Origin: Luteibacter yeojuensis
Lineage (GTDB): Bacteria > Pseudomonadota > Gammaproteobacteria > Xanthomonadales > Rhodanobacteraceae
DNA: 64,000 nucleotides
Assembly: GCF_000964085.1 (NCBI RefSeq)
Contig: NZ_JZRB01000029.1
Span: forward strand, 36,397-100,396
Direction: 5' to 3'
Positions 565-40,360 of the stretch are shown piece after piece. Within the stretch, counting starts at the first letter, position 1. The number at the start of each line of letters is the position of its first letter. Position numbers and translations under genes: made by a program. Below the pieces are notes generated by a model, which was not told the origin of the DNA, searched no databases, and saw nothing but the letters and a program-made list of their open reading frames with translations.

Positions 565-1671
565 ATGACGCCCCAGCCAGCATCCCCCGTCCGTTACTCG
601 CCCGCCCTTGAACATATCGACGATGACGAGGTGAGTGTGCACGCCGGTCTTGTCGAGCAGTTGGAGAAAATCGGCGATACCACCTACGCACACGGCCACC
701 ACGCCCTGCGCAGCGTGCACGCCAAGGGCCATGGGTTGCTCATCGGGTCGGTGACGATCCCCGACCACCTGCCGCCTGAACTCGCGCAGGGGCTGTTTGC
801 AAGCCCTGGCACGTATGACGCCGTGATTAGGCTTTCGACACCTGCCGGTGACGTACTCGACGACAACGTGTCGCTGCCGCGAGGCATGGCCGTGAAAATC
901 ATCGGGGTAGATGGAGAGCGCGTAGCCGCGTCGATGGAAGGGCGTACCCAGGATTTTGTCATGGTGAATGGCCCGGCCTTCGCCAAGCCCGACGCCAAGA
1001 GCTTCCTGCGCTCGCTTAAGCTGCTTGCAGCGACCACGGACAAGGGCGAGGTGCTCAAGCGTGCGTTGTCATCGACGCTGCGCGTGGTGGAGAAAGCGGT
1101 CGAGGGCGTTGGCGGAAAGAGCCCGGCACTCCTGACCATGGGCGGGCACCCCGAAACGCATATCCTCGGCGAGACGTTCTTCACGCAGGTCCCGCTGCGC
1201 TTTGGCGACTACGTTGCCAAGATCTCGTTTGCCCCCATCTCGCCGGCGCTGACGGCATTGACCGATGCACCGGTCGACCTGAAGGATCGGCCCGACGGGT
1301 TGCGGGAAGCGGTCGTGGACTTCTTCCGCGAAACAGGCGGCACGTGGGAAATCCGAGCGCAGCTCATGACCGATACCGAGAAAATGCCCGTTGAAGACGC
1401 GTCTGTGCCTTGGCCGGAGGACCACAGCCCCTACCGTGTCGTCGGCACCCTTACCGTGCCGCCGCAAGCCGCATGGGACGAGCAGAACATCCGCGCCATC
1501 GACGCCGCCACGTCGTTTAATCCCTGGCATGCCCTAGCCGCACACCAGCCGCTCGGTGGCGTGATGCGAGCGCGCCGAGTCGCATACGAAACCATGGCCC
1601 GCATCCGGCGCGAGCGCAATGGCACGCCTGTGCGGGAGCCCACGTCGCTTAATGACCTGCTCGCGACGTAA
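565..1671 (+). CDS. Catalase-related haem protein, a small catalase family protein.
   Basis: A 368 aa ORF with the 'LRSVHAKGHGLLIG' motif, which matches the catalase distal His/'HAKG' signature. Amino-acid composition is consistent with coding in a high-GC genome. Confidence 0.6.
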   Translation: MTPQPASPVRYSPALEHIDDDEVSVHAGLVEQLEKIGDTTYAHGHHALRSVHAKGHGLLIGSVTIPDHLPPELAQGLFASPGTYDAVIRLSTPAGDVLDDNVSLPRGMAVKIIGVDGERVAASMEGRTQDFVMVNGPAFAKPDAKSFLRSLKLLAATTDKGEVLKRALSSTLRVVEKAVEGVGGKSPALLTMGGHPETHILGETFFTQVPLRFGDYVAKISFAPISPALTALTDAPVDLKDRPDGLREAVVDFFRETGGTWEIRAQLMTDTEKMPVEDASVPWPEDHSPYRVVGTLTVPPQAAWDEQNIRAIDAATSFNPWHALAAHQPLGGVMRARRVAYETMARIRRERNGTPVREPTSLNDLLAT

Positions 1672-2177
1672 CGCCTCAAACGCGTCCGCAGCCGTTAACA
1701 AATCTTCTCGGCCAGGCTGACCATGGTCAGGGATATACGGCATCGACAGGCTACCTGCCGGCGGACGCCTGCTGGAAGGACCTAGGACGTCCCTGTGGCC
1801 TAACGACGGTGAGGCTGCGCTGTACCAATGCGTCGCTGGACCATGCTCGCAAGGCCTTCTGGTGAAGTGAAGGTGCGATCGATGGTTGCGGTGTGACAAA
1901 GCGCTGGTAACTCCCGTGACGCTTGGCGTCGCCGACCCTAGCCGCCACTGACACGCGCTAGCGCACGATGCCGCACTCTACCGTCGGCCGTCACCTGATT
2001 TTCATCGACGCTGGCTAGTCGGCGCCTATTGCTGCCTGGAAGGGTCAAGCTGCAATTGCTTGAGTTGGGATACACGGCTTAAGAATGTCCTCGTCGCCGC
2101 TCCCCTCCCTTAAAGACGTCCTCTTAGGCTGGATTATCTGCCGATCCCGGGGCGGATAGATTGATAAGCCTATGAAT

Positions 2178-2201
2178 TGATGACACATTTAAGTGTCATC
2201 A
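2178..2201. promoter_or_regulatory. Perfect 9-bp inverted repeat TGATGACAC-ATTTAA-GTGTCATCA in a low-GC non-coding stretch.
   Basis: Read directly from the sequence. It lies about 630 bp upstream of the PTH2-like gene start, in a region with no ORF. Confidence 0.35.
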
Positions 2202-2385
2202 ACGATGGACATCTTTAACTAGGTTCCGACATTGGCGCCAGAAACTAGGCCTCAAATCGAACGCCTGGCCAGCAACTCAACCGGATTGACTATGCATGCC
2301 AACGCCCCGCCCTGAACCTCGGTTGCGGTCGCCAAAGTTAGGCCGAGACGCTTCAGTTTTGGGCTGACATCGCCCGCAAGCAGCA

Positions 2386-2838
2386 TCACTTGATCATCGT
2401 ATAACGCTTCATGATGACCTCAACCTCATCGCGATATACCGGACCAACACCGAGCGCCGTCACAGTCGGCTCGCCGGTGAAGTGAGGCGGAACTTTGTGC
2501 CCGCGATCAATAACCAGGTGATGGGGCAGCTCTGCCTTCTGGAGGTCACGGTAAGCACGAACCAGAGTGGTTAGGCTTTTTGCATACATGACGAGCTTGG
2601 TGCCCTCACCGGTGCCCTTGTATTCCCCCGTGACCTCGGGACGTTGCATCAAGGCTTTCTCGTAAGCACTGGTGAACGCATGACCGCACTGAGCCGCCAG
2701 CTTCCCCGGACTCATTTCCAGATCGGCACGGCAGATGACATACATGTTCAGGGGCCGATAACCGGCGTGGAACTCAGCCATCGTGCGCTTGCGCTCTTCA
2801 AGCAGCTGCAGGATGTCGTCTTCGAGAGCAAGTTCCAT
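2386..2838 (-). CDS. PTH2-family peptidyl-tRNA hydrolase-like protein. The ORF-track entry extends to 2958, but the likely start is the internal Met at 2838.
   Basis: 'MSPGKLAAQCGHAFTSAY' matches the PTH2 'GKxAAQCxHA' core. The C-terminal 'HLVIDRGHK...PTVTALGVGP' matches the PTH2 C-terminus. The gene sits in a stretch of about 55% GC against a background of about 68%. Confidence 0.55.
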   Translation of the reverse strand: MELALEDDILQLLEERKRTMAEFHAGYRPLNMYVICRADLEMSPGKLAAQCGHAFTSAYEKALMQRPEVTGEYKGTGEGTKLVMYAKSLTTLVRAYRDLQKAELPHHLVIDRGHKVPPHFTGEPTVTALGVGPVYRDEVEVIMKRYTMIK

Positions 2839-3040
2839 GGCGTATGGCCTTCCCGGCAGTGTGTCGTTCCGTACATTAGCCGGACGCTGGAATTTATCCA
2901 GTCCAGTACCCGCAATCGATGCTAAGTTCGCCACCCGCGCAACCAACATTGAGACCACCCTGGTCGCTACATCACAAAATGCCCATCACCTTATTGCGAA
3001 TGATTCGCGTTCGCTATATCGTCCGCTTTTTACGCGCGGG

Positions 3041-3420
3041 CAATGCCAATGGCCTCGGTGGGTATTCTCAATTCGGTGCCCTCAGCCCTGCTCTGCGAGA
3101 TGTTCGGGGCCGCCGGCTTTGGCTTTGCCGTGCTTGATCTGGAGCATGTGCTCCTCTCACCAGGCGATCTGCAACATGTCATCCGGGCTTGCGAGCTCGG
3201 TGGTTACGAGCCATGAGTGCGGGTGCCGGAGGTCGATGCAAAGCTGATCGGCCGGGTGCTCGACGCCGGTGCCAGGGGCATCGTCATCCCACGACCGGAG
3301 ACCGCCGAGCAGGCCCACGCCGCGGTGCAGGCCGCGCACTTTCCGGCCCTGGGCACCCGCGGCATCAACCGCGGCGTGCTGCTGGCCGCCCGGCGCAGCC
3401 GCCGGCGTGAACTTGAACCC
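3041..3420 (+). pseudogene. Decayed HpcH/HpaI-family aldolase fragment, frameshifted and truncated.
   Basis: Two frames together give '...LCEMFGAAGFGFAVLDLEHVLLSPGDLQHVIRACELGGYEP*' followed by 'VRVPEVDAKLIGRVLDAGARGIVIPRPETAEQAHAAVQAAHFPALGTRG'. Joined, they recapitulate the HpcH/HpaI aldolase core (GFD..D.EH ... VRV ... LD.GA.GI.VP ... P.G.RG). There is an in-frame TGA near 3205, and the C-terminus is missing. Confidence 0.55.
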
Positions 3421-3442
3421 GTTAACCCTGAAGGATCGACCC

Positions 3443-5548
3443 GTGCGTGACACCCCCCGCCTGCTTGCCTTGAGCCTGGCCATCGCCTGTGCCCTGCCCG
3501 CCACCGCCCTCCGTGCCGCGGACGACGACCAGGCCATGCGCCAGAAAGCGAGCGACCTGCAGGCTATTACCGTGCAGGGCAATGTGCTGGGTGCATCGCG
3601 CACCGAAGACGTGCGCACCTACGCGGGCAGCCGCCAGGTCATCGCGCGCAAGGACCTCGACACCGGCGCCTACCGCTCGCTGGACGACGCCCTGCAGCAC
3701 GTGCCAGGCGTGAAGATCTTCGACGAGACCGGCACCGGTGTGCTGCCGCAGATCATGTTGCGCGGCCTTTACGAGAGCCGCAGTGGCCGCGTGCAGGTGC
3801 TCGAGGATGGCATACCGCTCTCGCTTGCCCCGTACGGCCAGACGAGCCTGTCGCTTTTCCCCGTGACGATGAACCAGATCGACCGCATCGACATCGTGCG
3901 CGGCGGCGCCGCCGTGCAGTACGGCCCGAACAACGTAGGCGGCGTGATCAACCTGGTAAGCAAGCCCATCCCGGAAACCTGGACCACCGTGCTTGGCGAG
4001 AAAGTGACGGCGGGTGGCAAGGGCAAATTCCTAAAGGACTCGTCGGTGAGCACCGGCGGCTACCTCACGCCGGATTTCGGCGTGCAAATGGATGCGGACT
4101 GGCTGAAGGGCCAGTACTGGCGCGACCACAGCGATACCGACGTGAAAAACGTGCGCCTGCGCACCGAGTGGTGGCTGGCCGATGACAAGGTGCTGAAGGC
4201 CGAGATCGGCCGCTACGTGGCCAACATGGATCTCGCGGGTGCCTTGTCGGTGGCCGATTACCGCGATAACCCCCGCGATGCGACACGCCCGCTGGATGAA
4301 TTCACCGGGCGCACCACGCGCAGCGCTGTTACCTACCAGCAGGACCTTGGGGCGTGGGCGCTGTTCGACAGTTCGCAGTTCGACTGGACGACGTTCGGCG
4401 CCGAGAGCACGCGCAATTTCGTCGTTGGCATGCGCCGGGCCTCCACGCAGACGTGGAGCCCCGACCTCCCGCCGCAGCTGCGCCAGAGCGCGCCGCGAGG
4501 GTTCAGCGTGTACGGCACGGAGCCACGCCTGTCGCTGCGCATCGACGGCGCCGTGAGCCAGCAATGGACCCTGGGCGTGCGCGCCGAGCGCGAGGATATC
4601 GACTTCCTTGTCGGCAACACGGGGCTGGATAACGGCGTCTACACCCTCGCGCGCAACTGGAAGTTCAGGGATCGTGCGTTCGCCGCCTATGTCAGCGATG
4701 CCATCGGTTTCATGGACGATCGCCTGACGGTGACGCCGGGCGTGCGCTTCGAGCACCTGGACTCGGATTACCACGACCTGGCCACGGGCCGCACCACGCA
4801 AAACAATATCCGCAACAGCCTGCCCGGCCTCACGGTGGGCTTCAAGGTATCGCCGCGCTGGTACGTCTATGCCGATGCGCAGCGCTCGCTGCGCGCGCCG
4901 CAGGTGACGCAGATCGTGTTCGGCGACAACCTGGATTCGGAACTGGCCTGGAACTACGAAGCGGGCATGCGATTCTTCCCGGCCGAAGGTACCAGCCTCA
5001 ACGTGGATGCCTACCGTATCGACTTCGACAAGCAGATCGCGCTGGACAACACCACGCGTACCTACGGCAACCTGGGCAAGACGCGCCACCAGGGTGTCGA
5101 AGCGCAGTTCGAGTGGTCGCCGGTGAAGGCGCTGAAGTTCGATCTCGGCTACGCCTATCTCGATGCGAAGCAGGAATCCGGGCAATACGCCGGCCAGCGC
5201 GTGCCGTATACCTCGCGTAACCAATACAACGTGGGCGCATCCTACGATCTCGGCGAGACCACGCTCGCGGTGAACGGCTACTACTTCAGCAAGGCGTTCA
5301 CCGACGCGGCGAACACGCCGGTGGAGAACGCCATCGCCTCGATCGGCCCCCTGCCCTCCTACGCGGTGTGGAACGCACAGGTGAGCCACGTCTTCCTGCG
5401 CGAAAAAACCAGCACCCTGAAGGGCACGCTGGCCGTGAACAACCTCGCCGACCACCGCTACTACTTCCGCGGCATCGACACCAGCCCCTGGGGTCGCGAG
5501 CCCGCACCGGGCCGCACCTTCACCGCAGGGGTGGAGCTGGCTTTCTAA
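3443..5548 (+). CDS. TonB-dependent outer-membrane receptor, siderophore/FecA-like. GTG start at 3443; the ORF-track N-terminal extension from 3269 is rejected.
   Basis: A signal peptide 'VRDTPRLLALSLAIACALPATALRA' preceded by AAGGA. The plug motif 'DRIDIVRGGAAVQYGPNNVGGVINLV' and a C-terminal aromatic '...GVELAF'. Confidence 0.8.
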   Translation: MRDTPRLLALSLAIACALPATALRAADDDQAMRQKASDLQAITVQGNVLGASRTEDVRTYAGSRQVIARKDLDTGAYRSLDDALQHVPGVKIFDETGTGVLPQIMLRGLYESRSGRVQVLEDGIPLSLAPYGQTSLSLFPVTMNQIDRIDIVRGGAAVQYGPNNVGGVINLVSKPIPETWTTVLGEKVTAGGKGKFLKDSSVSTGGYLTPDFGVQMDADWLKGQYWRDHSDTDVKNVRLRTEWWLADDKVLKAEIGRYVANMDLAGALSVADYRDNPRDATRPLDEFTGRTTRSAVTYQQDLGAWALFDSSQFDWTTFGAESTRNFVVGMRRASTQTWSPDLPPQLRQSAPRGFSVYGTEPRLSLRIDGAVSQQWTLGVRAEREDIDFLVGNTGLDNGVYTLARNWKFRDRAFAAYVSDAIGFMDDRLTVTPGVRFEHLDSDYHDLATGRTTQNNIRNSLPGLTVGFKVSPRWYVYADAQRSLRAPQVTQIVFGDNLDSELAWNYEAGMRFFPAEGTSLNVDAYRIDFDKQIALDNTTRTYGNLGKTRHQGVEAQFEWSPVKALKFDLGYAYLDAKQESGQYAGQRVPYTSRNQYNVGASYDLGETTLAVNGYYFSKAFTDAANTPVENAIASIGPLPSYAVWNAQVSHVFLREKTSTLKGTLAVNNLADHRYYFRGIDTSPWGREPAPGRTFTAGVELAF

Positions 5549-5562
5549 GCGCAAGCGACATC

Positions 5563-8500
5563 TCAGAAATCGTACGAGACGGCGACACGAACGTAACGCG
5601 GCTGCTGGCGGTAGACGACGCGTTGGTACGAATCCACCGGAACATCGTTGGTGCTGCCGTAACCGGAGTCGTACTGGATCGGGCGTTGTTTATTGAGGAT
5701 GTTGAACACGTAGAGGTTGAAAGCGAGTTTCTTCCCTGCCCATTCCGGACGGTACTCCAGGTTGCCCGACAACGTGTATTGCCACGGCGTGCGTCCAGCG
5801 CGGCCCGGCGGCTCGGGACGGCCATCGCAGAAGTAGTACGAGGTCTTGCCGTAGCCGGACGGGTCGCGATCCTCTGGCGGTAGATCAGGGCCACCAAAGG
5901 CGCCCAGGCAGCCCTTGGGCAGGCCCGACACGACGGCGAGGTTCGCGCCCAGCAGCCATTCCGACGCCATCTGCCAGTAGCCATTGAATTTGAACTGATG
6001 GCGCTGGTCGTTGGCCTGGTCGCCGTTGGAATACACCATCAGCGACGAGTAATCCCACGACGTCGTTGCGGCGATGTCGGACTGCCGGATATCCGATCGC
6101 ACCGGGCCCTCGGTGTTACCGAAGCTGTGCGAGTAGACGTAGTTGAACGAGCCGTACCACGTGCCGTCGAACGGGTGCTCGAGCGTGAACTCCAGGCCGG
6201 CGTACTTGCGCTTCAGATGCGGAAAGCCGAAATCGTCGTTGGTGACGTGCACGTTGTGGCGCGCGCCATCGTCGGTAAGCAGCGTGAAGTCGGAGGCCTT
6301 GCCCGGGTTGAAGATGTAGCAACTGGGGTTGGCATCGCTGAGCGCGTCGGTGTCCACGCCTTGCGCGCGGGCGGCCGCCTGGATGGTCCCCACGTCGCAT
6401 ACATCGTCCAGCGCGTTGCGCAGGTTGCGCACCACGCCCTTCACGCCGTAAACCCACTCCGGCCCCCACTGGTGCTGGAAGCCCAGCACGTATTCATCCT
6501 GGAATTCGGCCTTCAGGTGCCGCGCCGTCACCGTCTCCGGATCCGGCGCCGCGCCGGTCAATGCCGCGGCACTGCCGGCGACGGCGTGACCCGGCGGCAG
6601 GGCCGTCAGGCCACTTGGCGTGCCATCGGCGTTGATGCCGGTGTAGGTGAAGTACTCGTTGGTGAACAGGTTGCCACCGGCACCGCGAATGGCCACCGAG
6701 TTCGGCAGCGCGAGGTAGTAGCGTCCCACGTTGCCGAAGACCTTGAAGCTGGCATCGCCGCCGACGTCCCAGGCGAATCCGACACGCGGCGCCCACTGCG
6801 GCTTGGTCTGGCGGATGTACGCTTTGTGATCGGTGTTGTAGTTGGTGAACTGATCGTTGCGCAGGCCCAGCTTCAGGAGGAAGCGGTCGCTGACCTGCCA
6901 CGCGTCCTCGATGTACTGCGCCCGCTGCGTGGTCTGGGCCGAGGCCACCGCGCGATAACGGTAGCGCGAGACGTAATAGCCGTCCTCGCCGCCGGGGTAG
7001 CCAACCGGCGCCGGCACCCCGTTCTGGATGTCGATGGGCGCCGTCGGGTCGCCCGAGGCATTGGTGTAGATCCACCAGTAGCCGCCATCGGGACCGGACA
7101 CGATCGAGCCCTGGTCGGTGGCCACCGCCACCTGGTTGTCGATGCCGGCGCTGATGGTGTGGTCCCCCAGGTGCTCGCTCAGGTCGATGCGCAGGTTGCG
7201 CGTGCGGTTGGCGGCGGAGGGATCGTTCAAATACCCAAACGGCTGCGACCCGGGAAGCGGCACGCCGCCATTCAAGGCCGGGTTCTGGTTGCTCGCCCCG
7301 CTGATGAATACCTGGTCGGCGTCGTAGCCAGGGTACTGGGTGTAGTTCTTGTTCTTCAGCTTGCCGTACATCGCGCTCAACGTGAGGTCGTCGGTCAGGT
7401 AGCCGGTGTACTTCACGATGCCGATGTCGGTCGACGTCTTCGTGGGCGACGACTGCGCGCGGAAGGCGCCTTCGGTCTTGCTATCGTAGTCGTAGAAGAA
7501 CTGGTTGGCCTGGTAGGACTGCTTGCTCGACACCCCGGTGAATTCGAGGATGTGATTGTCGGTGATGTTCCAGTCGACCTTGGCGTACCAGCGCGGATCA
7601 CGGTAGCGGTATTCGGTCTCGTAGGGGCCGTCGATGCTGCCGATGCTGCTGCCCTGTTGCCGTTCGACCTCGTACGCGGCATAGAAGAACAGTTTGTCCT
7701 TGATCAGCGCGCCGCCGCCGTATCCGTTGATGATCTCCGACCAGCTCTTGTCCTCGCGGTTGTAGTCGTAGAGCTCGCCCTTTCGCTTGCCCTGGACGTA
7801 GTAACTATTCGCCGGCCCCGCGCGCAGTGAGCGCGGCAGCCACTGGATCTGTGCGCCGAAGTGCCACTCGTTGGTGCCATGCTTGCCCACCTGGCTGATC
7901 ACACCACCGTCGGAGCGCCCATATTGCGGACCGTAACCCGCGGTCAGGGTTTCCTGCTGATCGATGGCGCCATACGGAAGCTGCGTGCCACCCAAGTTGG
8001 TCAGTGGGTTCGAGGTGTTGAATCCGTTGATGTAATAGGCGTTCTCCGCGACCGACGAGCCGCTGAAGGCGACACCGCCGAACGCGGGATTGCCAGCCAC
8101 CGTGCCCGGGGCCAACAGGGCGACGGATTCGGCACTACGGGCGACGGGCAACTTGGCCAGCTCGGTGGCCGTGACGACGGAACGTGAGTCCACGCTGGTC
8201 GTATCGATCGCCGGGATGGCATTGGCCGAGACGGTTACCGCGGCGAGGTTTTCCGTCGAAGGGCCTGCGGCCGAGCTGGCTTCGGCGAAGGACACTTGCG
8301 TCGTCGTGCCCACGCGCAGCTGGATGTTGTCACGGGTTTCGACAGGCTTGCCATCGCGAAGCAACGTCACGCGGTAGATGCCGATGGGAAGCGATGCGGC
8401 CGTGAAGCGGCCACGCTCGTCCACGGGCACGTCGCGGCTGAAACCGGAACCCGGGTTTTCCACGCGAACGGATTCCCCGGCCGCCGCGGGCGCCGCGCCG

Positions 8501-8622
8501 CTGATGGTGCCGACCGTGGACTGGGCGAATACTGCCGGGCTTTCGATGCCCAGCAAGGCGACTGCGATGGCCGCGGCGATAACGCGCGCGCGGCAAGGCA
8601 TGGCATGGCGCATGGATGACAT
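5563..8622 (-). CDS. Oar-like TonB-dependent receptor with an N-terminal carboxypeptidase-regulatory-like domain.
   Basis: A 1019 aa protein with a signal peptide, followed by 'QSTVGTISG...VRVENPGSGFSRDVPVDERGRFTAASLPIGIYRVTLLRDGKPV' (CarbopepD_reg-like), a long β-barrel, and a C-terminal 'RVAVSYDF'. Confidence 0.8.
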   Translation of the reverse strand: MSSMRHAMPCRARVIAAAIAVALLGIESPAVFAQSTVGTISGAAPAAAGESVRVENPGSGFSRDVPVDERGRFTAASLPIGIYRVTLLRDGKPVETRDNIQLRVGTTTQVSFAEASSAAGPSTENLAAVTVSANAIPAIDTTSVDSRSVVTATELAKLPVARSAESVALLAPGTVAGNPAFGGVAFSGSSVAENAYYINGFNTSNPLTNLGGTQLPYGAIDQQETLTAGYGPQYGRSDGGVISQVGKHGTNEWHFGAQIQWLPRSLRAGPANSYYVQGKRKGELYDYNREDKSWSEIINGYGGGALIKDKLFFYAAYEVERQQGSSIGSIDGPYETEYRYRDPRWYAKVDWNITDNHILEFTGVSSKQSYQANQFFYDYDSKTEGAFRAQSSPTKTSTDIGIVKYTGYLTDDLTLSAMYGKLKNKNYTQYPGYDADQVFISGASNQNPALNGGVPLPGSQPFGYLNDPSAANRTRNLRIDLSEHLGDHTISAGIDNQVAVATDQGSIVSGPDGGYWWIYTNASGDPTAPIDIQNGVPAPVGYPGGEDGYYVSRYRYRAVASAQTTQRAQYIEDAWQVSDRFLLKLGLRNDQFTNYNTDHKAYIRQTKPQWAPRVGFAWDVGGDASFKVFGNVGRYYLALPNSVAIRGAGGNLFTNEYFTYTGINADGTPSGLTALPPGHAVAGSAAALTGAAPDPETVTARHLKAEFQDEYVLGFQHQWGPEWVYGVKGVVRNLRNALDDVCDVGTIQAAARAQGVDTDALSDANPSCYIFNPGKASDFTLLTDDGARHNVHVTNDDFGFPHLKRKYAGLEFTLEHPFDGTWYGSFNYVYSHSFGNTEGPVRSDIRQSDIAATTSWDYSSLMVYSNGDQANDQRHQFKFNGYWQMASEWLLGANLAVVSGLPKGCLGAFGGPDLPPEDRDPSGYGKTSYYFCDGRPEPPGRAGRTPWQYTLSGNLEYRPEWAGKKLAFNLYVFNILNKQRPIQYDSGYGSTNDVPVDSYQRVVYRQQPRYVRVAVSYDF

Positions 8623-8701
8623 ACGGTGAACCCCCGGATAAACCCCTGGACCGGCCCACGCCCCCTACGCGGTACCGACGGCCTGACGTGCGTGTTGGCA
8701 C

Positions 8702-8721
8702 CTCTCCGAATATTCGGAGAG
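8702..8721. promoter_or_regulatory. Perfect 20-bp palindrome CTCTCCGAATATTCGGAGAG upstream of the Oar-like TonB-dependent receptor gene.
   Basis: Read directly. It lies 80–100 bp upstream of the minus-strand start at 8622, in the 8623–8829 intergenic region. Confidence 0.4.
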
Positions 8722-8829
8722 TTACTATCGGATACCACGCAGTTTGCGGGAGCGCAACGGAGAGTTGTGAATCTGGGGCTATTAGTGCGTACCGCGTCTC
8801 AAGAAGCCAGGGGGTGCCGATGGCAGCAG

Positions 8830-9639
8830 CTACATGCCGGCGGAGTCGCGGGGCGCCCCAAATCGCTGGTGCAACAGCCGTTCACGCACGAAACGATAGG
8901 GAGGGCCGGCCCATCGTTTAAGCGGCTTCTTCACATTCCACTTGGCCCACTGCTTGAACCGGGCACCGCCGCCGGCGCCGGCAAGTGCCATGGCCACCGC
9001 AGGCGCATCGGCCTGCACCAGGGCGTAACGCCCCAAAACTGCGCAGCCACCGCGGCGCCATGCGCGCGTGGTGGGTTCCGACGTGAACAAGGTACGAATG
9101 CCGGAAGCCTCGGCCGCCTCTAGTACGGCCCTCGACATGAAACCACCTGGCACGGACGCTACCTGCACGCGCTCACCGAGTACGTCCTCCAGCGCCTCCA
9201 CGCTACGCCGCCACTCATCTCGCAGCGCGGCCGCATCGAGCCGGGAAATGTTCGCAGGATGCGTGTGCGAATGGCTGCCGACCAGGTGCCCTGCCCGGCG
9301 CAGCGCACGTAGGTCGTCGGCACTGACGAAGCCGGGCGTGCCGATGCGTGCTGTTGTGATGAAAAAACATCCACGCATTCCCCGCTCCACCATGGCCTCG
9401 CCCACGGCAACCGCGCTCGCACCGCCATCGTCGTAGGTCAGCAGGCAACCTTCGTAGCGCCCGGCGGCCACGGCTCCCGGCTCGGCAAACGTGGCGCCAA
9501 CAGCGCGAAGGCCGTCAAGATGGGCAAGGAAGTTGGTGGTATCGAGCTTGTAGTGCGCAGCCGCGCTGCCCAGGAACCCGCTGTCGTCCCAACGGCTGTC
9601 GGAAACCACGTCGTGGTACATCAGGCTGACGAGGCTCAT
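8830..9639 (-). CDS. Polysaccharide deacetylase (NodB-homology) family protein, ArnD-like.
   Basis: The motifs 'MYHDV', 'LTYDDG' and 'HSHTHP' are the NodB-domain metal and catalytic motifs. There is a 4-bp overlap with the upstream formyltransferase gene. Confidence 0.7.
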   Translation of the reverse strand: MSLVSLMYHDVVSDSRWDDSGFLGSAAAHYKLDTTNFLAHLDGLRAVGATFAEPGAVAAGRYEGCLLTYDDGGASAVAVGEAMVERGMRGCFFITTARIGTPGFVSADDLRALRRAGHLVGSHSHTHPANISRLDAAALRDEWRRSVEALEDVLGERVQVASVPGGFMSRAVLEAAEASGIRTLFTSEPTTRAWRRGGCAVLGRYALVQADAPAVAMALAGAGGGARFKQWAKWNVKKPLKRWAGPPYRFVRERLLHQRFGAPRDSAGM

Positions 9640-10448
9640 TCGGCGGCCACCGCAGCTGGTGCCGCCGTGCGGGCAGCACGTTTCCAGCGCAGGTAGCGGC
9701 TAAGCCACGGCTGGCCCCAGACGCCACTGGGGCGACCCGCCACATCGATCGGCCGCGCGGTACCCGCCACGATGTCGCGCATGCGCTGCGCCAGGGCATC
9801 GAGGTTATCGAGCACCACACGGTACTGCACGCGCACATGCGATTCGTTCGCTTCGTCGAAGGGATAGGTGTAGTAGCCGTAGATCGGACCGGTATCGATG
9901 CCGGCGTCGATGCGCAACAGCGTGAGCCCCACCTTGTCGAGGTCGCGCTCGGCCAGCGCCCAGAAGCACCCATGGGCGTTGCGGTATTCGGGGCAGATGC
10001 CGGGGTGCATCACCAGGCAGCCGTGCCGGGGCACGCGGTAGATCCGCTTCGAAAGAAGCTGCTTGCTGCGGGCGATCATGAGGTCGGGTTCGCACGCGGC
10101 GAGGAAACGGGCAACCTCCGGTGCATTGGCGCTGGAGACCCGTAGTTCCGGCACGCCCGCCACATCGTTGAAGCGCGCGCGAAGGTCGCCAAGGCGCTCG
10201 CCCATCCAGGCGTTGTCGGCCGCCGCCAACCGGAACCGGTAGTAGAACCGCATCGCAAGAACATCCAGGAAGCGCCATGGCCCTACCCGCTTGAGCTCGC
10301 GGCGCACGCGCGCGCGTTTCTGCTCGCCGGTTTCCTCGATCAGGACAAGGCCGGCCAGGTCGGAAAACGACGCCAGCCAGGCCGCCAGGCCCTGGCGGTC
10401 GAAGGCATCGTCGGCATGGCACATCAATACGGTGCGCATGGATCGCAC
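9636..10448 (-). CDS. Stand-alone formyltransferase-domain protein, Fmt/ArnA N-terminal-domain-like.
   Basis: 'LVMHPGICPEYRNAHGCFWAL' resembles the formyl-transferase 'H-P-S-L-L-P-x-x-R-G' region. At 270 aa it has no C-terminal dehydrogenase domain. It is translationally coupled to the deacetylase. Confidence 0.55.
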   Translation of the reverse strand: MRSMRTVLMCHADDAFDRQGLAAWLASFSDLAGLVLIEETGEQKRARVRRELKRVGPWRFLDVLAMRFYYRFRLAAADNAWMGERLGDLRARFNDVAGVPELRVSSANAPEVARFLAACEPDLMIARSKQLLSKRIYRVPRHGCLVMHPGICPEYRNAHGCFWALAERDLDKVGLTLLRIDAGIDTGPIYGYYTYPFDEANESHVRVQYRVVLDNLDALAQRMRDIVAGTARPIDVAGRPSGVWGQPWLSRYLRWKRAARTAAPAAVAAE

Positions 10449-10578
10449 TCAGTTTGGAGACGCCCTATTCTCGCGCCGCCCCGCCGGGCGCGCGATTGGT
10501 CGAAGGCACTATGCCGCGGCCATGGATGGCCCAAATGGCACTCCTGCCGCCCCGCCTCCATGGCCGAAGCTCAGCCCC

Positions 10579-11622
10579 ATGGCCCGCCGACCCGTCCTCC
10601 CACGCCTCGCGCTTACCGCCGCCACGCTGGTGGCCGTCACCGTCCTGGTGGTGCTTGCCGGCACCATCTACAACACCATCGCCCAGCACCGCCGGTTGGC
10701 CGAGGCACACGTGCCCGGGGCCTTCTACAAGATCCACGGGCACACGATGCATATTTACTGCACCGGCTCGGGGGAGCCGGCGATCGTGCTGGACACGGGC
10801 CTCGGCGATGATTTCACCAGCTGGCAGAAGGTGCAGCCCGAGCTGTCGAAGGTCACCCGGGTGTGCTCATACGATCGCAGCGGCTTTGGCTCCAGCGAAA
10901 TGACCGGCGGCCCCCACGATGCCGACACGCTCTCGGCCGCGCTGCACGACCTGGTCGCCGCGGCGGGCATCCGCAAGCCGTTCATCCTCATGGGCCACTC
11001 CATCGCCGGCATCTACCTCCGGAGCTACGCCAGCCATTACGAGGGCGACCTGGCCGGCCTGGTCTTCGTCGACGGCGCGACGCCGCTGCAGGATGAGCGG
11101 GTGCCACGAAGCGTCGTCGCCATCGAGGAGCACCAGCGCCGTGCCATGCCGTGGCAGAAGTTCCTGATGGCTATCGGGTGGTACCGGCTGCGGGGCGATT
11201 GCGACACCGTGCAATCCGGCTTCGAGGCCTTCGCGACCATCGTGCGCGCCTACAACTGCGCGCCGTCGCAATTCGACGCGATCGAGGCCGAGATTGACGC
11301 CGAACCCAGGTCAGGCCAGGAAACCGTGCACGCCGGCCCCTTCCCCCGCCTGCCCATCCTGATCTTTTCGCGCGACCCGGCGTCGCGGCCGCCGAACTGG
11401 CCCGAGCAGGTCGGCGCAGCCAACGCCAAGGTGTGGAACATCATGCAGGAGGAGACGAGGCAGCTCTCGCCGCAGAGTCGCCGCGTCATCGCCAGGGGCA
11501 GCGAGCACTACGTGCACGTGGACCGGCCCGAGCTGGTCATTGATGAAGTCAGGCGCTTCGTCGAATCCATCCGGGTGAAACGTATCCCGTATGCCGAGGC
11601 GCAGCCGACGGTCACCCGGTAG
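10579..11622 (+). CDS. Membrane-anchored α/β-hydrolase. The ORF-track start at 10291 is rejected; 10522 is an alternative start.
   Basis: An N-terminal TM helix 'LALTAATLVAVTVLVVLAGTIY', then 'IVLDTGLGDD', the nucleophile elbow 'GHSIAG', and a C-terminal His region. Confidence 0.65.
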   Translation: MARRPVLPRLALTAATLVAVTVLVVLAGTIYNTIAQHRRLAEAHVPGAFYKIHGHTMHIYCTGSGEPAIVLDTGLGDDFTSWQKVQPELSKVTRVCSYDRSGFGSSEMTGGPHDADTLSAALHDLVAAAGIRKPFILMGHSIAGIYLRSYASHYEGDLAGLVFVDGATPLQDERVPRSVVAIEEHQRRAMPWQKFLMAIGWYRLRGDCDTVQSGFEAFATIVRAYNCAPSQFDAIEAEIDAEPRSGQETVHAGPFPRLPILIFSRDPASRPPNWPEQVGAANAKVWNIMQEETRQLSPQSRRVIARGSEHYVHVDRPELVIDEVRRFVESIRVKRIPYAEAQPTVTR

Positions 11623-11786
11623 CCCACACGGCCGTAGAACGAAAGTCATATCGCCCCCTGCGCCATCGAGGCGTATGTTCCTGCGCTTGGGGGCGAACCA
11701 CCGCGCAGCCGCGGCAAGTGCGCCAAGCCAGCTGCCTCATCCACCGCTTACGATCGGCGCGGCACTACCGCGCGCCGCGGAGGCGC

Positions 11787-12485
11787 ATGGTGATGACACC
11801 GACCGCCGATAGTATGACGCGCAGCATATCAGTCCTGGGGCGCTTGGGCGTCTTTCCGGTGATGCGCTTGTCCCTTCCAGGCCGCCGCCTTCTTGCGTAC
11901 CTGGCATTGAAGCGGCAGCCGATGCCACGCGGCGTGGCCGCGGCGCAGCTCTGGCCCGACATGCCCGACGATGCGGCGCGTGCGAACCTGCGTCGCGCAC
12001 TCTGGCACGTTCCCGCTGGCTGGATCTGCGCACTCGGCGATGAGCTTGGCCTTGACGCCACCTGCGACCTCGCGACGGCACATGGGGTCGCCGCGCGTGC
12101 CCTCGCGGGCGATTCCGTGGCCCTTGGCGATATCGCCTTGTTGTCGAACGACATCCTGCCCGGGTGGTATGAAGAATGGGCCGTTGCCGAGCAGGATGCC
12201 TTCCACCTGCTGCGCGTACAGGCGCTCGAAGCGATCTGCCGGAGCATGTTGGCTGCCGGCCAGCTCGCCCTGGCGATCCAGGCCGGCGCGGCCGCGATTG
12301 CCGCGGATCCCTTGCGGGAATCGGCCGCGGAAGCCCTCATCGACGCGCACCTGGCGCAGCGCAACCGGTACGACGCGGTGCGGTGCTTTCGTTCACTCGC
12401 CGAGCGGCTTGACCGTGAGTTGGGCGTCGAGCCGGATCCGGCGCTAGCGGAGCGCGTCGTCGGTCTCGGCCGGGGTGGCTGTTAG
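11787..12485 (+). CDS. SARP-family transcriptional regulator, a winged-helix DNA-binding domain plus a BTAD domain.
   Basis: '...LLAYLALKRQPMPRGVAAAQLWPDMPDDAARANLRRALWHV' is the OmpR/SARP-type wHTH. The BTAD-like helical repeats end in '...RSLAERLDRELGVEPDPAL'. The likely start is ATG 11787. Confidence 0.55.
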   Translation: MVMTPTADSMTRSISVLGRLGVFPVMRLSLPGRRLLAYLALKRQPMPRGVAAAQLWPDMPDDAARANLRRALWHVPAGWICALGDELGLDATCDLATAHGVAARALAGDSVALGDIALLSNDILPGWYEEWAVAEQDAFHLLRVQALEAICRSMLAAGQLALAIQAGAAAIAADPLRESAAEALIDAHLAQRNRYDAVRCFRSLAERLDRELGVEPDPALAERVVGLGRGGC

Positions 12486-12646
12486 CGTTGCCGTGGACGG
12501 ATGGCGGACGCCAGGCGGACGCGACCGGCGGGTGGCGCGGACGGCGGGGCCACGTCGGTGGCACGTGCGGTTCACAACCGGGTGCATGGTCGTGGATGGC
12601 ACCTGTGATCGACTGCCTCCACCAGCCAAGGGCGTGGAGCGGTCCC

Positions 12647-15022
12647 ATGTCGATCGACCAGCAATCCGAGCGGAACCCGTTTGCCGAAGCCATCTACGCG
12701 CCGGAGGATGCGGCGCCTGCGACGGAATCGACCCCCTCGTTTGAAACGGGCCTCATGCCCTTCGCCGAATCGGGCGGCATGCCGGTCGCCGAGGCGGCGA
12801 CCGACCAGCGTCTCATGCAGGCCTTTGCGCAGCTTCGCGACGAGGCGTTTGACGAAGCGGTGGCCTTTCTCGCCGAAGAAACCGAGCAAGCGATTGCCGA
12901 TCGATTCACCGACGAATCCCCGGCATCCGTCGCCGAACGCGAGCGCTACGGCGACGCACAGCTCGCGGCCGTCCGCTTCGAGGCGCAGCAATACCTGTCG
13001 TCGCTCGAGGCTGGCCTCGCCGACGCCCACATCGACGCGCTCACCGACGAACAGCTCAGCGAAGCACTCGATCGCCTTGACCCGCAACCGGGCGAGCTGA
13101 CACCCGCGGGTGAAGAATTCCTCGGCTCGCTGATCAACAAGGCGAAGAGCGCGGTGAAGTTCGTCGCCAACGCCGCGAAGGGCGTGGGCTCGGTGGTGGG
13201 CAAGGTGGCGGGCACCTTGCTCGGGCCCGTGCTGCAAAAATTGCGTGGCCTCATCAACCCACTCCTGAAGCGCGTGCTTTCCATCGCCATCGGCCGCCTG
13301 CCCGCGGCCCTGCAGCCCAGTGCACGTGCACTGGCGAAGCAGATGGCATCGGAAACCTGGCAGGAAGGCCAGGCCGCCTACGAAGGCGATGCTTCGCCCG
13401 CCACGCTCGCGGATACCGCGGCACTGGCTGAATCCTTCGATGCCTCCCTCGCGGAAGCCCTCGTGGCGGACCCGGCCATGGGTTTCGCTGGCGAGAGCTA
13501 TGAGGATGCCGACCGCGAAGCCGCGCCCGATGGCCGCGCACTGGAGCGCCTTGCCGAAGCGCGCGGCGAACTCATCGACCGGATACGCACCGCCCAGGAC
13601 GAAGAGGACCTTGCCCCCGCGATCGAACAGTTCGTGCCAGCGCTTTTGGGTGCGCTTCGCATGGGCATCAAGCTCGTCGGACGGCCGAAGGTCGTGCAGT
13701 TCCTCGCGCGCTACCTTGGGCAGGTGATCCGCGGCTGGGTCGGCCCCACGCTGACGGGCCCCTTGTCCAACGCCATCGTCGACACCGGCCTGCGACTCGT
13801 GCAGCTGGAATCGTCGGAGGAAACGGGCGCCTCGCGTCGTGACGAGGCAGGCCCTGTCGCGCTGGCCAGTGTCGTCGAGGACACCACGCGGCGGCTGGCC
13901 GAAAGCGAGGAATACATCTTCGAGAACGAGGACCTCACGCAGCTGGCCACGGCCGCTGCGTTCGGCGAGGCCGTGGCCAGCCACTTCCCGCAGCGCTTCG
14001 TACGGCAGGCCTTGCGCCAGGCGCCGTCGCTGGGCGGCACGTTCATCAGCAAACGTCCGCGCAGCGTGCGCACGTACCGCAAGTACAGTCGCGTGCCGGA
14101 GGTGGAGGTCACGGCACAGATGGCCGATGCGCTGCCGAGCTTCGGCGGAACCACCGTCGGCGCCGTGCTGCGTGCGGCCGGCGCGACGTTCCCCGTGCGT
14201 GCGCGGATGCACATCTACGAGGCCGTCGCAGGTACCACGCTGCCGCGCATGTTGCGCGTGGACCGCGCCGGCGGCGGGACAAGCCATGCCGCGTCGTCAC
14301 AGGCACACCCGCTGACGCCCGAAGCCGCGGGCCTGCTGCTGCGCGAGCCGAAGCTGGGCGTCGCGACGGCGCCGGGCTTCCTTCAATCACGCCACAAGAT
14401 CGCCGTCGGCCAACGCTTCTACTTGCTCGAACCCACGGGTGCGGCCGGCGCGCTCGTGCTCTCCGAGGCCGCCACGCGAACGACGGCGGCACGGCTGGCC
14501 CCAAGCCGTGCGTGGACGGTCGTTAACCTGCGCCGCTCGAAGATCACGGTCGGCCTGTTCCTGTCCGAGGCCGACGCGCAGGGGATCGCCGAGGCGATCC
14601 GCCAGGGGCGTGGCCCCACCGCCCTGCTGCAGGCGTTGACCACCCTGTACCGCGCCGCGGCCCAACGCTCCGACGCCGCGCCGCACGGCCACCTGCGCAT
14701 CGTCCACGAGGACAGTGAAGACAACGAAGCACTCGCGCCGCCCGCCACCAGCGCCCTGCCCGCCCACCTCGTGGCCGTGTTGCGGCGGCGCCTCGAAAGC
14801 TGGGTGTTGCCCGCGCTTGCGGCGTGGGTGAAGGACAACAGCGAGGCGTTCGCCCGCGCGGCGGCGCACCCGGATGCGGGCGTCACCGTGAGGATCCGGC
14901 TGACGGCCGTGCCCGGCCTCGACGCCCTGGCGCAGGCCACGTCCCCCGCCGCGGCCGAGGCCGCGCTGCGTGGCTCGCCCGCCATCGCCATCAGCGTGGG
15001 TTCCGGGAGGGGCCAGAAATGA
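12647..15022 (+). CDS. Large hypothetical protein of 791 aa with no signal peptide, an acidic Ala/Glu-rich N-terminal third, and no recognisable domains.
   Basis: ATG at 12647 preceded by GGAGCGG. The ORF-track TTG start at 12488 adds an Arg/Gly-rich extension and is rejected. The stop overlaps the next start (ATGA at 15019–15022). Confidence 0.6.
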   Translation: MSIDQQSERNPFAEAIYAPEDAAPATESTPSFETGLMPFAESGGMPVAEAATDQRLMQAFAQLRDEAFDEAVAFLAEETEQAIADRFTDESPASVAERERYGDAQLAAVRFEAQQYLSSLEAGLADAHIDALTDEQLSEALDRLDPQPGELTPAGEEFLGSLINKAKSAVKFVANAAKGVGSVVGKVAGTLLGPVLQKLRGLINPLLKRVLSIAIGRLPAALQPSARALAKQMASETWQEGQAAYEGDASPATLADTAALAESFDASLAEALVADPAMGFAGESYEDADREAAPDGRALERLAEARGELIDRIRTAQDEEDLAPAIEQFVPALLGALRMGIKLVGRPKVVQFLARYLGQVIRGWVGPTLTGPLSNAIVDTGLRLVQLESSEETGASRRDEAGPVALASVVEDTTRRLAESEEYIFENEDLTQLATAAAFGEAVASHFPQRFVRQALRQAPSLGGTFISKRPRSVRTYRKYSRVPEVEVTAQMADALPSFGGTTVGAVLRAAGATFPVRARMHIYEAVAGTTLPRMLRVDRAGGGTSHAASSQAHPLTPEAAGLLLREPKLGVATAPGFLQSRHKIAVGQRFYLLEPTGAAGALVLSEAATRTTAARLAPSRAWTVVNLRRSKITVGLFLSEADAQGIAEAIRQGRGPTALLQALTTLYRAAAQRSDAAPHGHLRIVHEDSEDNEALAPPATSALPAHLVAVLRRRLESWVLPALAAWVKDNSEAFARAAAHPDAGVTVRIRLTAVPGLDALAQATSPAAAEAALRGSPAIAISVGSGRGQK

Positions 15023-16284
15023 CCCGCGTGGCGTCACTGGAGCACCACCTCGTCAGCGCCGACCTCGAGCGGCAGGTGGCGCACTGGCTGGCTGCGTCGC
15101 GCACGTTCCGCGATGCGGAGGATTTCGCTTCCCTCGGCGCGTGGCAGTCGGTCGAGCGCAACATCGGCATACCGCTACGGCGGCAGATGAACGCGACCGT
15201 CGAGGAACTCATCGCCCTGGGTGAAGCCACGGCCACGCTGATCGCAAAGGCACGCGCCAACCCTGCCTTGCTCGACGATGCGAAAGCCGCGGTGCAACGG
15301 TTCCGGCATCGCTACGTGCAGGTGGATACCACGCTCGATTTCCTCGGCGATGCCGTGAACTCACGCACCAGCCCATCGCTCTGCGCCACGTTATCGACCC
15401 TCGATCGCCTGGCCGTGGCAAGCATGGCGCCCGTGCTCCAGCGCGCGAACAAGCCCGTGCCGGCCGTGCTGGTGTACCAGGACAAAGGCACGGGTGCGTC
15501 GATCCTGCGTGCCGGGGTGCGCCTTTGGGCCCCTGGCACGATCATGCCCGTGGCCGCGATCAAGATCGTGCGCCACAACCTGTACCGGCCCACGTCGTTG
15601 TTCCACGAAACGGGGCACCAGGTGGCGTACCTCACGGGCTGGACGCCGGCCGTGCGGCAAGCCATCGCCGCCACCCTCGCCGACGACCCGCCCCTGCAGG
15701 CGATGTGGACGGCATGGGCGCCGGAGATCACGGCCGATGTGTATGCGTTCCTGCACACCGGGTACGCATCCGTGGCCGCGCTGTACGACGTCGTCGGGGA
15801 TGCACGGACGATCCTTGCGTGGCCCATCGGTGATCCACACCCGATAGGCTGGTTGCGCACGGCGCTGGGTTGTGCGTTTTCCAGGCAATGCTTCGGCGGC
15901 GACGGGCCCTGGACGCAGCTGCAGCGCGCGATGGAAGCCTGCCACCCGCTGGGCCACGCGGACGAGAGCGTGCAGCCCCTCCTTGCCCGGTCCATGGCGG
16001 CCATGCCCCGCATCGCCGCCGCGTGCCTTGCGGCACCCGTGCCCGCGCTGCGTGGCCGCCCCATGACCGATGTGCTCGACCCGCAGCGCGTTTCGCCCGC
16101 TGCGCTGGCCGAGCTTGAGCACTATGCCGGTGCCGCGCTGTGGACCTCCAGCCACTGGCGGCAGGCCGAGGGCATCCGCATCGTCGCCCTCGCCGGCTTG
16201 CGTGAGGCCGAACAACCTGAAACGGCGCCACGCTGGATCGAGCGGGCGCGCACCTGGTTCAACGCAGGAGCCCGCGCGGCATGA
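15019..16284 (+). CDS. HExxH-motif protein of 421 aa, a putative zinc metallopeptidase-like protein.
   Basis: 'LFHETGHQVAY' (H196-E-x-x-H200, nt 15604–15618) is the only recognisable motif. It is translationally coupled on both sides. Confidence 0.55.
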   Translation: MTRVASLEHHLVSADLERQVAHWLAASRTFRDAEDFASLGAWQSVERNIGIPLRRQMNATVEELIALGEATATLIAKARANPALLDDAKAAVQRFRHRYVQVDTTLDFLGDAVNSRTSPSLCATLSTLDRLAVASMAPVLQRANKPVPAVLVYQDKGTGASILRAGVRLWAPGTIMPVAAIKIVRHNLYRPTSLFHETGHQVAYLTGWTPAVRQAIAATLADDPPLQAMWTAWAPEITADVYAFLHTGYASVAALYDVVGDARTILAWPIGDPHPIGWLRTALGCAFSRQCFGGDGPWTQLQRAMEACHPLGHADESVQPLLARSMAAMPRIAAACLAAPVPALRGRPMTDVLDPQRVSPAALAELEHYAGAALWTSSHWRQAEGIRIVALAGLREAEQPETAPRWIERARTWFNAGARAA

Positions 16285-17737: not shown

Positions 17738-17750
17738 GGAATGACCCACC

Positions 17751-40163: not shown

Positions 40164-40183
40164 GCACAAGGCTTGGGAAGAAC

Positions 40184-40228
40184 GCCCCGGCGGCCAGGCA
40201 CATGCCTGGTCGCCGGAGCGTTTTTTTA
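40184..40228 (+). terminator. Rho-independent terminator after the PQQ dehydrogenase gene.
   Basis: GC-rich stem CCGGCGGCCAGGCA-catg-TGCCTGGTCGCCGG followed by TTTTTTTAT. Confidence 0.7.
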
Positions 40229-40249
40229 TGCGTTCGCGCACCGCCCTAA

Positions 40250-40310: not shown

Positions 40311-40360
40311 CGATGCCACGCACGCGGCTAACCCGATGGTTCGCGTAGACCCTTACTTCG

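Follow-up and report, generated by a model that had tools for sequence, protein, structure and literature searches.

Peptidyl-tRNA hydrolase of the PTH2 type is an archaeo-eukaryotic enzyme (PMC3488237), and the locus described here raises the question of how a gene for such a protein came to lie in a bacterial chromosome next to a decayed aldolase gene, and whether the arrival of the one brought about the decay of the other. The locus is part of a stretch of 64,000 nucleotides (nt) of Luteibacter yeojuensis, hereafter the window (assembly GCF_000964085.1, contig NZ_JZRB01000029.1, positions 36,397–100,396 of the forward strand). All coordinates are window-based, and L-numbers (L093, L094, L098, L153, L218 and so on) denote fetched comparison loci, 217 in number and 2.7 Mb in total. 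A first-pass annotation of the same DNA had proposed a horizontal insertion that disrupted a resident gene. We consider it probable instead that a PTH2 gene of the mobile type, lying in a small foreign patch, was acquired long ago, and that the aldolase decayed separately as the xanthoferrin (xss) siderophore cluster was lost.

The gene in question and the DNA upstream of it are the following.

2386–2838, minus strand: intact gene for a PTH2-type peptidyl-/aminoacyl-tRNA hydrolase of 150 amino acids (aa), ATG at 2838, stop codon at 2386–2388.
2839–2990, no strand assigned: intergenic DNA upstream of PTH2, divergently arranged, presumed to be the PTH2 promoter region and conserved in no relative.

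The assignment to PTH2 made in the first pass is upheld by profile search, with the fold and the conserved Lys and Asp retained. The protein matches Pfam family PF01981 with 78.2 bits (E 7.1e-22; gathering cut-off 23 bits) over profile positions 2–112 of 115, matches phrog_1866 with an E-value of 7.5e-22, and retrieves human Bit1 and archaeal Pth2 in a sequence search of the PDB. It is identical to RefSeq entry WP_052697935.1 (aminoacyl-tRNA hydrolase, 150 aa, Luteibacter yeojuensis), while GenBank entry KJV31342.1 annotates the gene as a hypothetical protein of 119 aa. Since six other loci are homologous, at the nucleotide as well as the protein level, only within 2383–2842, translation should start at ATG 2838, preceded at 9 nt by the ribosome-binding site GGGAAGG, and give a product of 150 aa; a start at GTG 2958 was rejected in view of these homology borders and the RefSeq entry. 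The AlphaFold (AF2) model (predicted local distance difference score pLDDT 90.7, predicted TM-score pTM 0.83) has the four-strand/four-helix alpha/beta fold of Pth2, and all 14 Foldseek matches in the PDB at E<=0.001 are Pth2/Bit1 chains, most of them with TM-scores of 0.77–0.93 as normalised by target length. Residues K46 and D111 and the motif KLAAQxxH are invariant in an alignment of 22 homologs, and K46 and D111 fall on the GK and DxG motifs of Pth2 proteins with known structure. The catalytic residues of Sulfolobus solfataricus Pth2 are reportedly K18 and D86, and these we take to correspond to K46 and D111. With pairwise ratios of nonsynonymous to synonymous substitution (dN/dS) of 0.06–0.18 for five homologs, and of 0.07 against the related contig L218, the gene evidently evolved under purifying selection, and its product is predicted to be active as a peptidyl-tRNA hydrolase.

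Archaeal and eukaryotic Pth2 (M. jannaschii MJ0051, 2zv3; P. horikoshii, 1wn2; S. solfataricus, 1xty; human PTRH2/Bit1, 1q7s) share with the window protein the Pfam family, the alpha/beta fold, the motif R-D-L-x-M-x-x-G-K-x-x-A-Q-x-x-H and an Asp-x-Gly, at 26–31% identity. Against most of their chains the model reaches target-normalised TM-scores of 0.83–0.93. Unlike archaeal Pth2, the window protein is extended at its N-terminus by ~30 residues, among them a helix at 7–20, and its subfamily reads DRGHx-xPPHFxGxP, with a five-residue PPHF insertion after the Asp. The archaeal enzyme has a housekeeping function, whereas the subfamily of the window protein is carried by bacteria and mobile elements. 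The Pth1 of bacteria, an essential resident enzyme, would carry out the same reaction as PTH2, namely the release of tRNA from peptidyl- or N-acyl-aminoacyl-tRNA, but is unrelated to it in sequence and fold (PMC3488237; PMC11202043).

Most bacteria have Pth1 only, and select bacteria have gained Pth2 laterally (PMC4929431, PMC7824862), so that lateral acquisition is already known and the window gene adds one case. The family is patchy in its occurrence; the first pass had called the domain uncommon in bacteria. An indexed search gave 35 homologs, the named ones being from Luteibacter, Dyella and Variovorax, and among 1.84 billion cluster representatives, searched exhaustively, there were 1006 matches at E<=1e-3, of which only five reached E<=1e-30; the 150-aa subfamily thus appears small. 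In Dyella Tek66A03 the gene has integrase, KfrA, HipA, Phd and OLD nuclease genes as neighbors, at another locus SIR2, DUF87, an integrase fragment, ISL3 and Tn3, and at further loci either NADAR together with DUF1737 or KfrA. Distant relatives are found on plasmids of 0.7–1.3 Mb in Variovorax, Bosea, Pseudomonas, Vibrio and Rhizobium, and in jumbo or large phages including Atu_ph07, Phosso, XacN1, Xoo-sp13, SCTP-2 and the phiM12-like and phiCbK-like phages, where identity in tBLASTn is 29–36% (Atu_ph07, Phosso, XacN1 and others). A further 65 viral contigs, most of them 100–600 kb long, carry PTH2 relatives, and one of them, L153, encodes a full-length homolog with 63% identity over residues 5–150. 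PTH2 is described as common in jumbo phages, where ribosome rescue after tRNA damage was proposed as its role (PMC7824862, Iyer et al. 2021), and was also found in the tRNA arrays of cluster C mycobacteriophages (PMC5966550). These phage proteins (phrog_1866) belong to the same family as the window protein; unlike the phage genes, the window gene is chromosomal and solitary, with no tRNA, transfer-messenger RNA (tmRNA) or RNA-repair gene nearby. The presence of relatives in integrative elements, megaplasmids and jumbo phages supports a lateral origin, and we regard the gene as one of phage type, gained laterally some time ago and probably functional.

Among the viral relatives we observed a linkage with suppressor tRNAs. 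In an ARAGORN survey of 55 viral loci bearing a PTH2 relative (L153–L207), a tRNA with the CUA anticodon, thus an amber suppressor, was located on the same strand within 6 kb in 26, often 30–400 bp upstream of the gene. The UUA anticodon occurred in one locus and UCA in two, which brings the loci with a suppressor tRNA within 6 kb to 29 of the 55, and in ~15 loci the CUA tRNA is the sole tRNA within 12 kb. Examples are found at 5897–5971 in L182, 5881–5954 in L199, 5890–5964 in L174 and 5816–5887 in L171, in all four of which PTH2 starts at 6001. Rfam confirmed ten of the suppressor tRNAs with 60–70 bits as the sole RNA matches in their loci, and the tRNAs form divergent cloverleaves in which compensatory changes are seen. 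A tmRNA lies nearby in eight of the 55 loci. Contig L153 (43% GC) carries two PTH2 paralogs 1.7 kb apart, of 152 aa (5992–6450) and 109 aa (8180–8509), with a thioredoxin-reductase-like gene between them and a permuted tmRNA upstream. Recoding of TAG in the phage loci with a CUA tRNA was considered and rejected, as coverage by open reading frames (ORFs) under the standard code is 0.88, the same as in loci without such a tRNA. No literature on a linkage between PTH2 and suppressor tRNAs was found, and no tRNA was detected near the window gene or near the five members of the 150-aa subfamily tested, which lie on chromosomes or plasmids.

The second line of evidence on the origin of the gene is the composition of the DNA in which it lies, for which three further features are needed.

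1672–2385, no strand assigned: non-coding spacer of 714 bp between the convergent catalase-related gene (plus strand) and the PTH2 gene (minus strand).
2110–2218, no strand assigned: structured element of ~110 nt, a 12-bp outer stem (2110–2121 / 2207–2218) around two hairpins.
2177–2202, no strand assigned: perfect 10-bp inverted repeat TTGATGACAC-ATTTAA-GTGTCATCAA, read from the sequence and nested in the 2110–2218 fold.

The dip in GC content noticed in the first pass is real, although its limits, given there as 1680–2960, have to be moved, since GC falls below 60% over ~1900–3150. The 1-kb bin 2001–3000 is the lowest of the 64 bins of the window (55.1%, against a mean of 67.7%), sliding windows of 450, 700 and 1200 bp place the minimum at ~1976–3200 with a z-score of ~-4.1, and the trough of 51–52% lies at 2001–2400. 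Non-coding DNA makes up about two thirds of this low-GC stretch and includes the aldolase's Fur-box promoter, which is natively AT-rich. Within the PTH2 gene, GC at third codon positions (GC3) is 0.66, compared with 0.85–0.87 in neighboring genes. The first ~700 bp were correctly described as ORF-free, as the longest ORF lying fully within 1672–2385 is at most 67 aa. The spacer has 57.7% GC overall and 53% at 2100–2385, and 1672–2100 is only mildly low with 60–61%.

As to the origin of the non-coding DNA, BLASTn and tBLASTx of 1672–2385 and 2839–3042 against the PTH2 loci, all 217 loci, plasmids and phages, together with Rfam searches with E up to 10, revealed no pseudogene remnant, tRNA remnant or known RNA. 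Rfam gave no match for 1672–2385 and only a match at chance level for 2839–2990, and DNA similar to 1672–2385 was not found among the plasmids, the phages and the 2.7 Mb of fetched loci. The inverted repeat exists, one base pair longer than the 9 bp at 2178–2201 reported in the first pass, and is single-copy in the window even with up to three mismatches allowed. Since the window holds eight distinct perfect hairpins with stems of 10 bp or more (14 overlapping calls, against ~2 calls expected from Markov simulations), the repeat is real and by itself unremarkable. The surrounding 2095–2235 folds with -55.5 kcal/mol (z -5.4 on the minus and -3.9 on the plus strand), which places the 2110–2218 fold in the tail of the distribution of 141-nt stretches of the window, without being extreme. 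A terminator was ruled out because a T-run is missing on both strands, and a miniature inverted-repeat transposable element or other repeat family because there is one copy in the window and no exact match in the viral contigs. An integron attC site was rejected as well: with the boxes RYYYAAC and GTTRRRY sought 3′ of the ORF, the outer arms TTAAAGACGTCC / GGACATCTTTAA fit, by eye, the R''/R' boxes in neither orientation. Of the hallmarks of an integrated element, a tRNA is absent from the window, no significant flanking direct repeats were found, and no integrase occurs among the neighboring ORFs scanned. It is composition and distribution, then, that support a foreign origin of the PTH2 gene.

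Whether this gene harmed its neighbor can be judged from the aldolase itself and the genes that follow it.

2991–3012, plus strand: putative Fur-box-like operator TTATTGCGAATGATTCGCGTTC, with the palindrome GCGAAT-g-ATTCGC at 2996–3008.
3043–3450, plus strand: pseudogene of an mhpE-like HpcH/HpaI aldolase, native ATG at 3043, first gene of the xss cluster.
3443–5548, plus strand: intact gene for an xsuA-like TonB-dependent siderophore receptor with Plug and TonB_dep_Rec_b-barrel domains.
5563–8622, convergent with xsuA: CarboxypepD_reg/OMP barrel gene, a second outer-membrane receptor following the first.

The ORF 3217–3450 matches PF03328 with 29.6 bits (cut-off 25 bits) and NCBIfam models of the HpaI type as well. 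Homologs come from Xanthomonadales and begin with MxxxxG[IL]LNS, which marks ATG 3043 as the native start followed by an unbroken frame; a frameshift near 3055 was rejected, as homologs start like the ORF from ATG 3043. The first lesion is instead a nonsense codon, TGA at 3214–3216 in place of a conserved Trp codon (TGG). Homology then breaks at 3375: 3054–3374 matches L098 7206–7494, and 3368–3396 aligns with the 3′ ends of genes that are intact (L098 7836–7864, L101 7899–7927), the tail RGVLLAARR aligning with RGLLLAALRDR of intact proteins of ~245 aa. The second lesion is thus an in-frame internal deletion of ~348 bp (~116 codons) between CGCGGC repeats, with its junction at 3368–3376, and not a truncation. 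No other aldolase fragment exists anywhere in the window, and the gene, lacking the intact ~245-aa frame, is a pseudogene, so that the decay claimed in the first pass stands while the frameshift and the truncated end do not.

The control region of the aldolase is in a different state. The operator aligns with TTATTGATAATGATTCTCATTA, found at the same position upstream of the intact aldolase in six relatives, and Xanthomonas-type loci have TTGATAATCATT at the corresponding position. It resembles the Fur-box consensus. Conservation in the alignment of relatives ends left of ~2988, and the promoter and start codon of the aldolase lie intact between the two genes, facing PTH2.

The gene order in L094 (aldolase, receptor, 408-aa protein, IucA/IucC, MFS, second IucA/IucC) matches the described xss cluster, made up of mhpE and xsuA together with xssA–E (PMC6804348), which identifies the aldolase as the mhpE-like gene of that cluster. 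The receptor at 3443–5548 is 63% identical to the one in the Xanthomonas-type cluster of L094. As in the Xanthomonas mhpE-xsuA-xssABCDE cluster, a Fur-box promoter precedes an mhpE-like first gene in the window, and an xsuA-like receptor comes next; unlike there, mhpE is a pseudogene, xssA–E are absent from the window and the receptor alone is intact, and one further lineage (L105) likewise has the receptor without the aldolase. The absence of xssA–E refers to the 64-kb window, in which tBLASTn with three L094 proteins (the 408-aa protein, IucA/IucC and MFS) found no homolog. What is left is therefore a relic of the cluster, with xsuA as its one complete gene. The intact aldolase in relatives, for which the first pass had suggested to look, was found by a metagenome scan with the receptor: at least eight relatives (L095–L109, 68–81% identity) have an intact aldolase, the receptor and then, where the contig extends, homologs of the 408-aa protein, IucA/IucC and MFS, with no PTH2 or catalase-related gene within 8 kb of their xss locus. 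The window shares with them only 3004–5550, and the homology ends at 5548–5550, at the stop codon of the receptor. Given the intact promoter and start, the internal position of the lesions and the missing biosynthesis genes, the aldolase appears to have decayed as the siderophore pathway was lost, independently of the PTH2 insertion, and the remaining receptor looks like an orphan for a siderophore made by others.

Two observations from other genomes touch this locus. In X. perforans (L093, 4159–6657) three minus-strand genes, for proteins of 189 aa, 441 aa (phospholipase-like) and 210 aa, lie between a Na+/H+ exchanger gene and the xss promoter, where L094 has only ~190 bp, so that insertions seem to recur, among Xanthomonadales, at the place just upstream of the xss Fur box. 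Furthermore, several database copies of the aldolase are split or truncated, as a frameshifted pair of 106 + 118 aa in L094 (7001–7674) and elsewhere as fragments of 79–106 aa (P0039–P0041); decay of the mhpE-like gene may extend to other lineages, unless errors of assembly are responsible.

The age of the PTH2 gene can be approached through L218, a 19-kb contig from a Logan assembly, whose 87-aa PTH2 fragment falls in the same 90%-identity cluster as the window protein. L218 is 82% identical to window 8837–11714, a block of abhydrolase, formyl transferase and polysaccharide deacetylase genes, 90% identical to 20680–21329, and 81% identical to the PTH2 ORF at 2382–2733. Its PTH2 copy lacks the first 28 codons and has a frameshift near codon 126, thus is a pseudogene, and it has the same orientation relative to the conserved block as in the window. 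The distance between PTH2 and the deacetylase gene is ~440 bp in L218 versus ~6 kb in the window, where 2839–8836 holds the aldolase relic, xsuA and the second outer-membrane receptor. Synonymous difference (pS) between the two is 0.66 for PTH2 and 0.63 for the deacetylase, and 0.31–0.44 for three other flanking genes. The presence of the PTH2 pseudogene beside the same block suggests that the acquisition predates the split at ~82% nucleotide identity; most simply, the common ancestor already had PTH2 next to these genes. By this comparison the gene is to be seen as an old shared acquisition and not as a recent strain-specific insertion. The first pass would have given up the insertion had relatives carried the gene as an ancestral arrangement, and this is partly the case, as the relative has the gene in the same place with matching synonymous divergence, in the form of a pseudogene. 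Beside this, the ~9 kb at window 11715–20679 are extra compared with L218 651–884, with only an 85-bp match (16467–16551) kept, and encode a BTAD-domain regulator, large proteins without Pfam domains and a VanY-domain protein; the region appears structurally plastic.

How firmly an old acquisition with separate decay of the aldolase can be held depends on its rivals. In the first-pass scenario a recent PTH2 islet landed in the resident HpcH aldolase and broke it, which would account for a low-GC patch abutting the pseudogene and for the lack of PTH2 in all of the at least eight relatives that keep the aldolase intact at the xss locus. We regard this as very improbable, because the start codon and the conserved Fur-box promoter stand intact between the two genes, the nonsense codon and the deletion between the CGCGGC repeats are at least 330 bp away from the islet, no piece of the aldolase is found beyond it, the downstream biosynthesis genes are likewise missing from the window, and PTH2 is common to the window and L218 at a syntenic place; of the earlier proposal the lateral origin remains, and the disruption of the aldolase does not. 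Equally hard to sustain is the idea that PTH2 acts as a toxin by freeing tRNA of its amino acid or peptide, and survives from a former toxin-antitoxin or effector-immunity pair. Homologs are indeed often located among defense and toxin-antitoxin genes, a Phd-type antitoxin gene lies 160 bp upstream of PTH2 in Dyella Tek66A03, and a 99-aa gene overlaps the PTH2 start in Variovorax; the upstream neighbor, however, varies from locus to locus (Phd, HAD_SAK_2, the 99-aa unknown, DUF1737, KfrA or none), so that the conserved adjacent partner of a toxin-antitoxin system is not found and the window gene has no partner at all. A toxin would not be tolerated solitary and intact as the window gene is, and the phage copies adjoin tRNAs and tmRNAs instead of immunity genes. 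A PADLOC scan gave no model matching the gene and no literature tying PTH2 to toxins was found, so that the toxin/effector-fusion reading of the first pass finds no support; the lack of a conserved partner and the solitary window gene make a toxin role unlikely.

More weight, though still small, belongs to the view that PTH2 is an inert relic of a decayed mobile element, unexpressed or unused and intact by chance, for which one may cite a solitary gene with no recognizable promoter, 714 bp of orphan non-coding DNA alongside, the absence of integrase, tRNA and flanking repeats, and the L218 ortholog being a pseudogene already. Against it, the ORF and the family-conserved residues are intact at a pS of ~0.66 from L218, with a ratio of nonsynonymous to synonymous difference (pN/pS) of ~0.07–0.15, when an unconstrained ORF of 150 codons would be expected to gain stops or frameshifts like the L218 copy. 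We find it similarly doubtful that the window and L218 copies stem from separate insertions into a hot spot downstream of the polysaccharide-deacetylase gene. The flanks at the PTH2 ORF are unrelated (6 kb at 2839–8836 in the window, ~440 bp in L218), the region is plastic, with the 9 kb extra at 11715–20679, and the family is mobile; but it is also rare (the 35 indexed matches and five representatives at E<=1e-30 given above), the two copies are mutually closest and share a 90% cluster and an orientation relative to the block, and pS is nearly equal in PTH2 and the adjacent deacetylase. Several points do weigh against an old acquisition of a working enzyme. The protein stays below the NCBIfam equivalog cut-offs for archaeal Pth2 (NF003314, 74.5 vs 126 bits; TIGR00283, 55.7 vs 82 bits) and would accordingly belong to a divergent subfamily instead of being an ortholog of the archaeal enzyme; in place of the Thr of DAGxT in the archaeal proteins, which is unconserved, stands the family-specific DRGHx-xPPHF insertion, so that the choice of substrate could differ; and no match to the sigma-70 consensus was found upstream of the gene at 2839–2990. 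Shared ancestry with L218 rests on a single 19-kb contig, both flanks directly at the PTH2 ORF differ between the two, which leaves room for an independent hot-spot insertion, and the pseudogene in L218 means that the gene was dispensable in at least one lineage.

If the old acquisition is accepted, the following course of events can be proposed. PTH2 would have been gained before L. yeojuensis split from its ~82%-identical relative, and a nonsense codon and an in-frame deletion would have inactivated the aldolase while xssA–E were lost and xsuA was kept. The enzyme would cleave the ester bond of peptidyl-tRNA or N-acyl-aminoacyl-tRNA off the ribosome, freeing the tRNA, and would supplement the Pth1 of the host; on mobile elements and in phages it may keep translation running under stress or attack. 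A role in translation rescue is indicated by the phage relatives, which sit with suppressor tRNAs, tmRNAs and tRNA arrays. Pth1 reverses the acetylation of aminoacyl-tRNA by TacT (PMC9241777), and a counter-toxin role of PTH2 is therefore conceivable. Taken further, the 150-aa subfamily might be a counter-measure of mobile elements against attack on charged tRNA or ribosomes, part of a hitherto undescribed suppressor-tRNA/tmRNA module in phages, with the Luteibacter gene as a domesticated survivor. It would then clear N-acetyl-aminoacyl-tRNA made by GNAT toxins, or peptidyl-tRNA produced by abortive-infection systems, and in phages PTH2, the amber-suppressor tRNA and tmRNA together might control translation termination during infection; we offer this larger picture as a speculation and consider it unlikely.

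One gene and one structure in the remainder of the window deserve mention.

565–1671, plus strand: catalase-related gene for a protein of 368 aa, with a weak match to Pfam Catalase (20.8 bits, below the cut-off).
40163–40361: the strongest predicted RNA/DNA structure of the window, z -10.6 (40186–40326, minus strand).

The best relatives of the catalase-related protein have 52–61% identity and are scattered over Alpha-, Beta- and Gammaproteobacteria, its GC3 is 0.77, and no shared neighbors were found on the homologs' contigs that were scanned; the gene may itself be an older lateral acquisition. The structure at 40163–40361 lies between convergent genes and is made up of a 16-bp hairpin GGTTCATTCGCG..CGCGAATGAACC plus a bidirectional terminator with A- and T-runs at its sides; it looks like ordinary terminators.

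The locus as such is mostly ordinary, and for the window the main value of the analysis is a corrected annotation, in which PTH2 has 150 aa, as in RefSeq, and the aldolase is the mhpE-like gene of xss. For the biology of L. yeojuensis, an operon reduced to an orphan xsuA suggests that the organism imports a siderophore which it may no longer make. For the protein family, the 150-aa PTH2 proteins constitute a small, uncharacterised subfamily, distinguished by an N-terminal helix and the DRGH..PPHF motif, that moves among islands of Xanthomonadales and Burkholderiales, megaplasmids and large phages, and the linkage of phage PTH2 to suppressor tRNAs and tmRNA gives a testable lead on why phages carry an enzyme of archaeal type.

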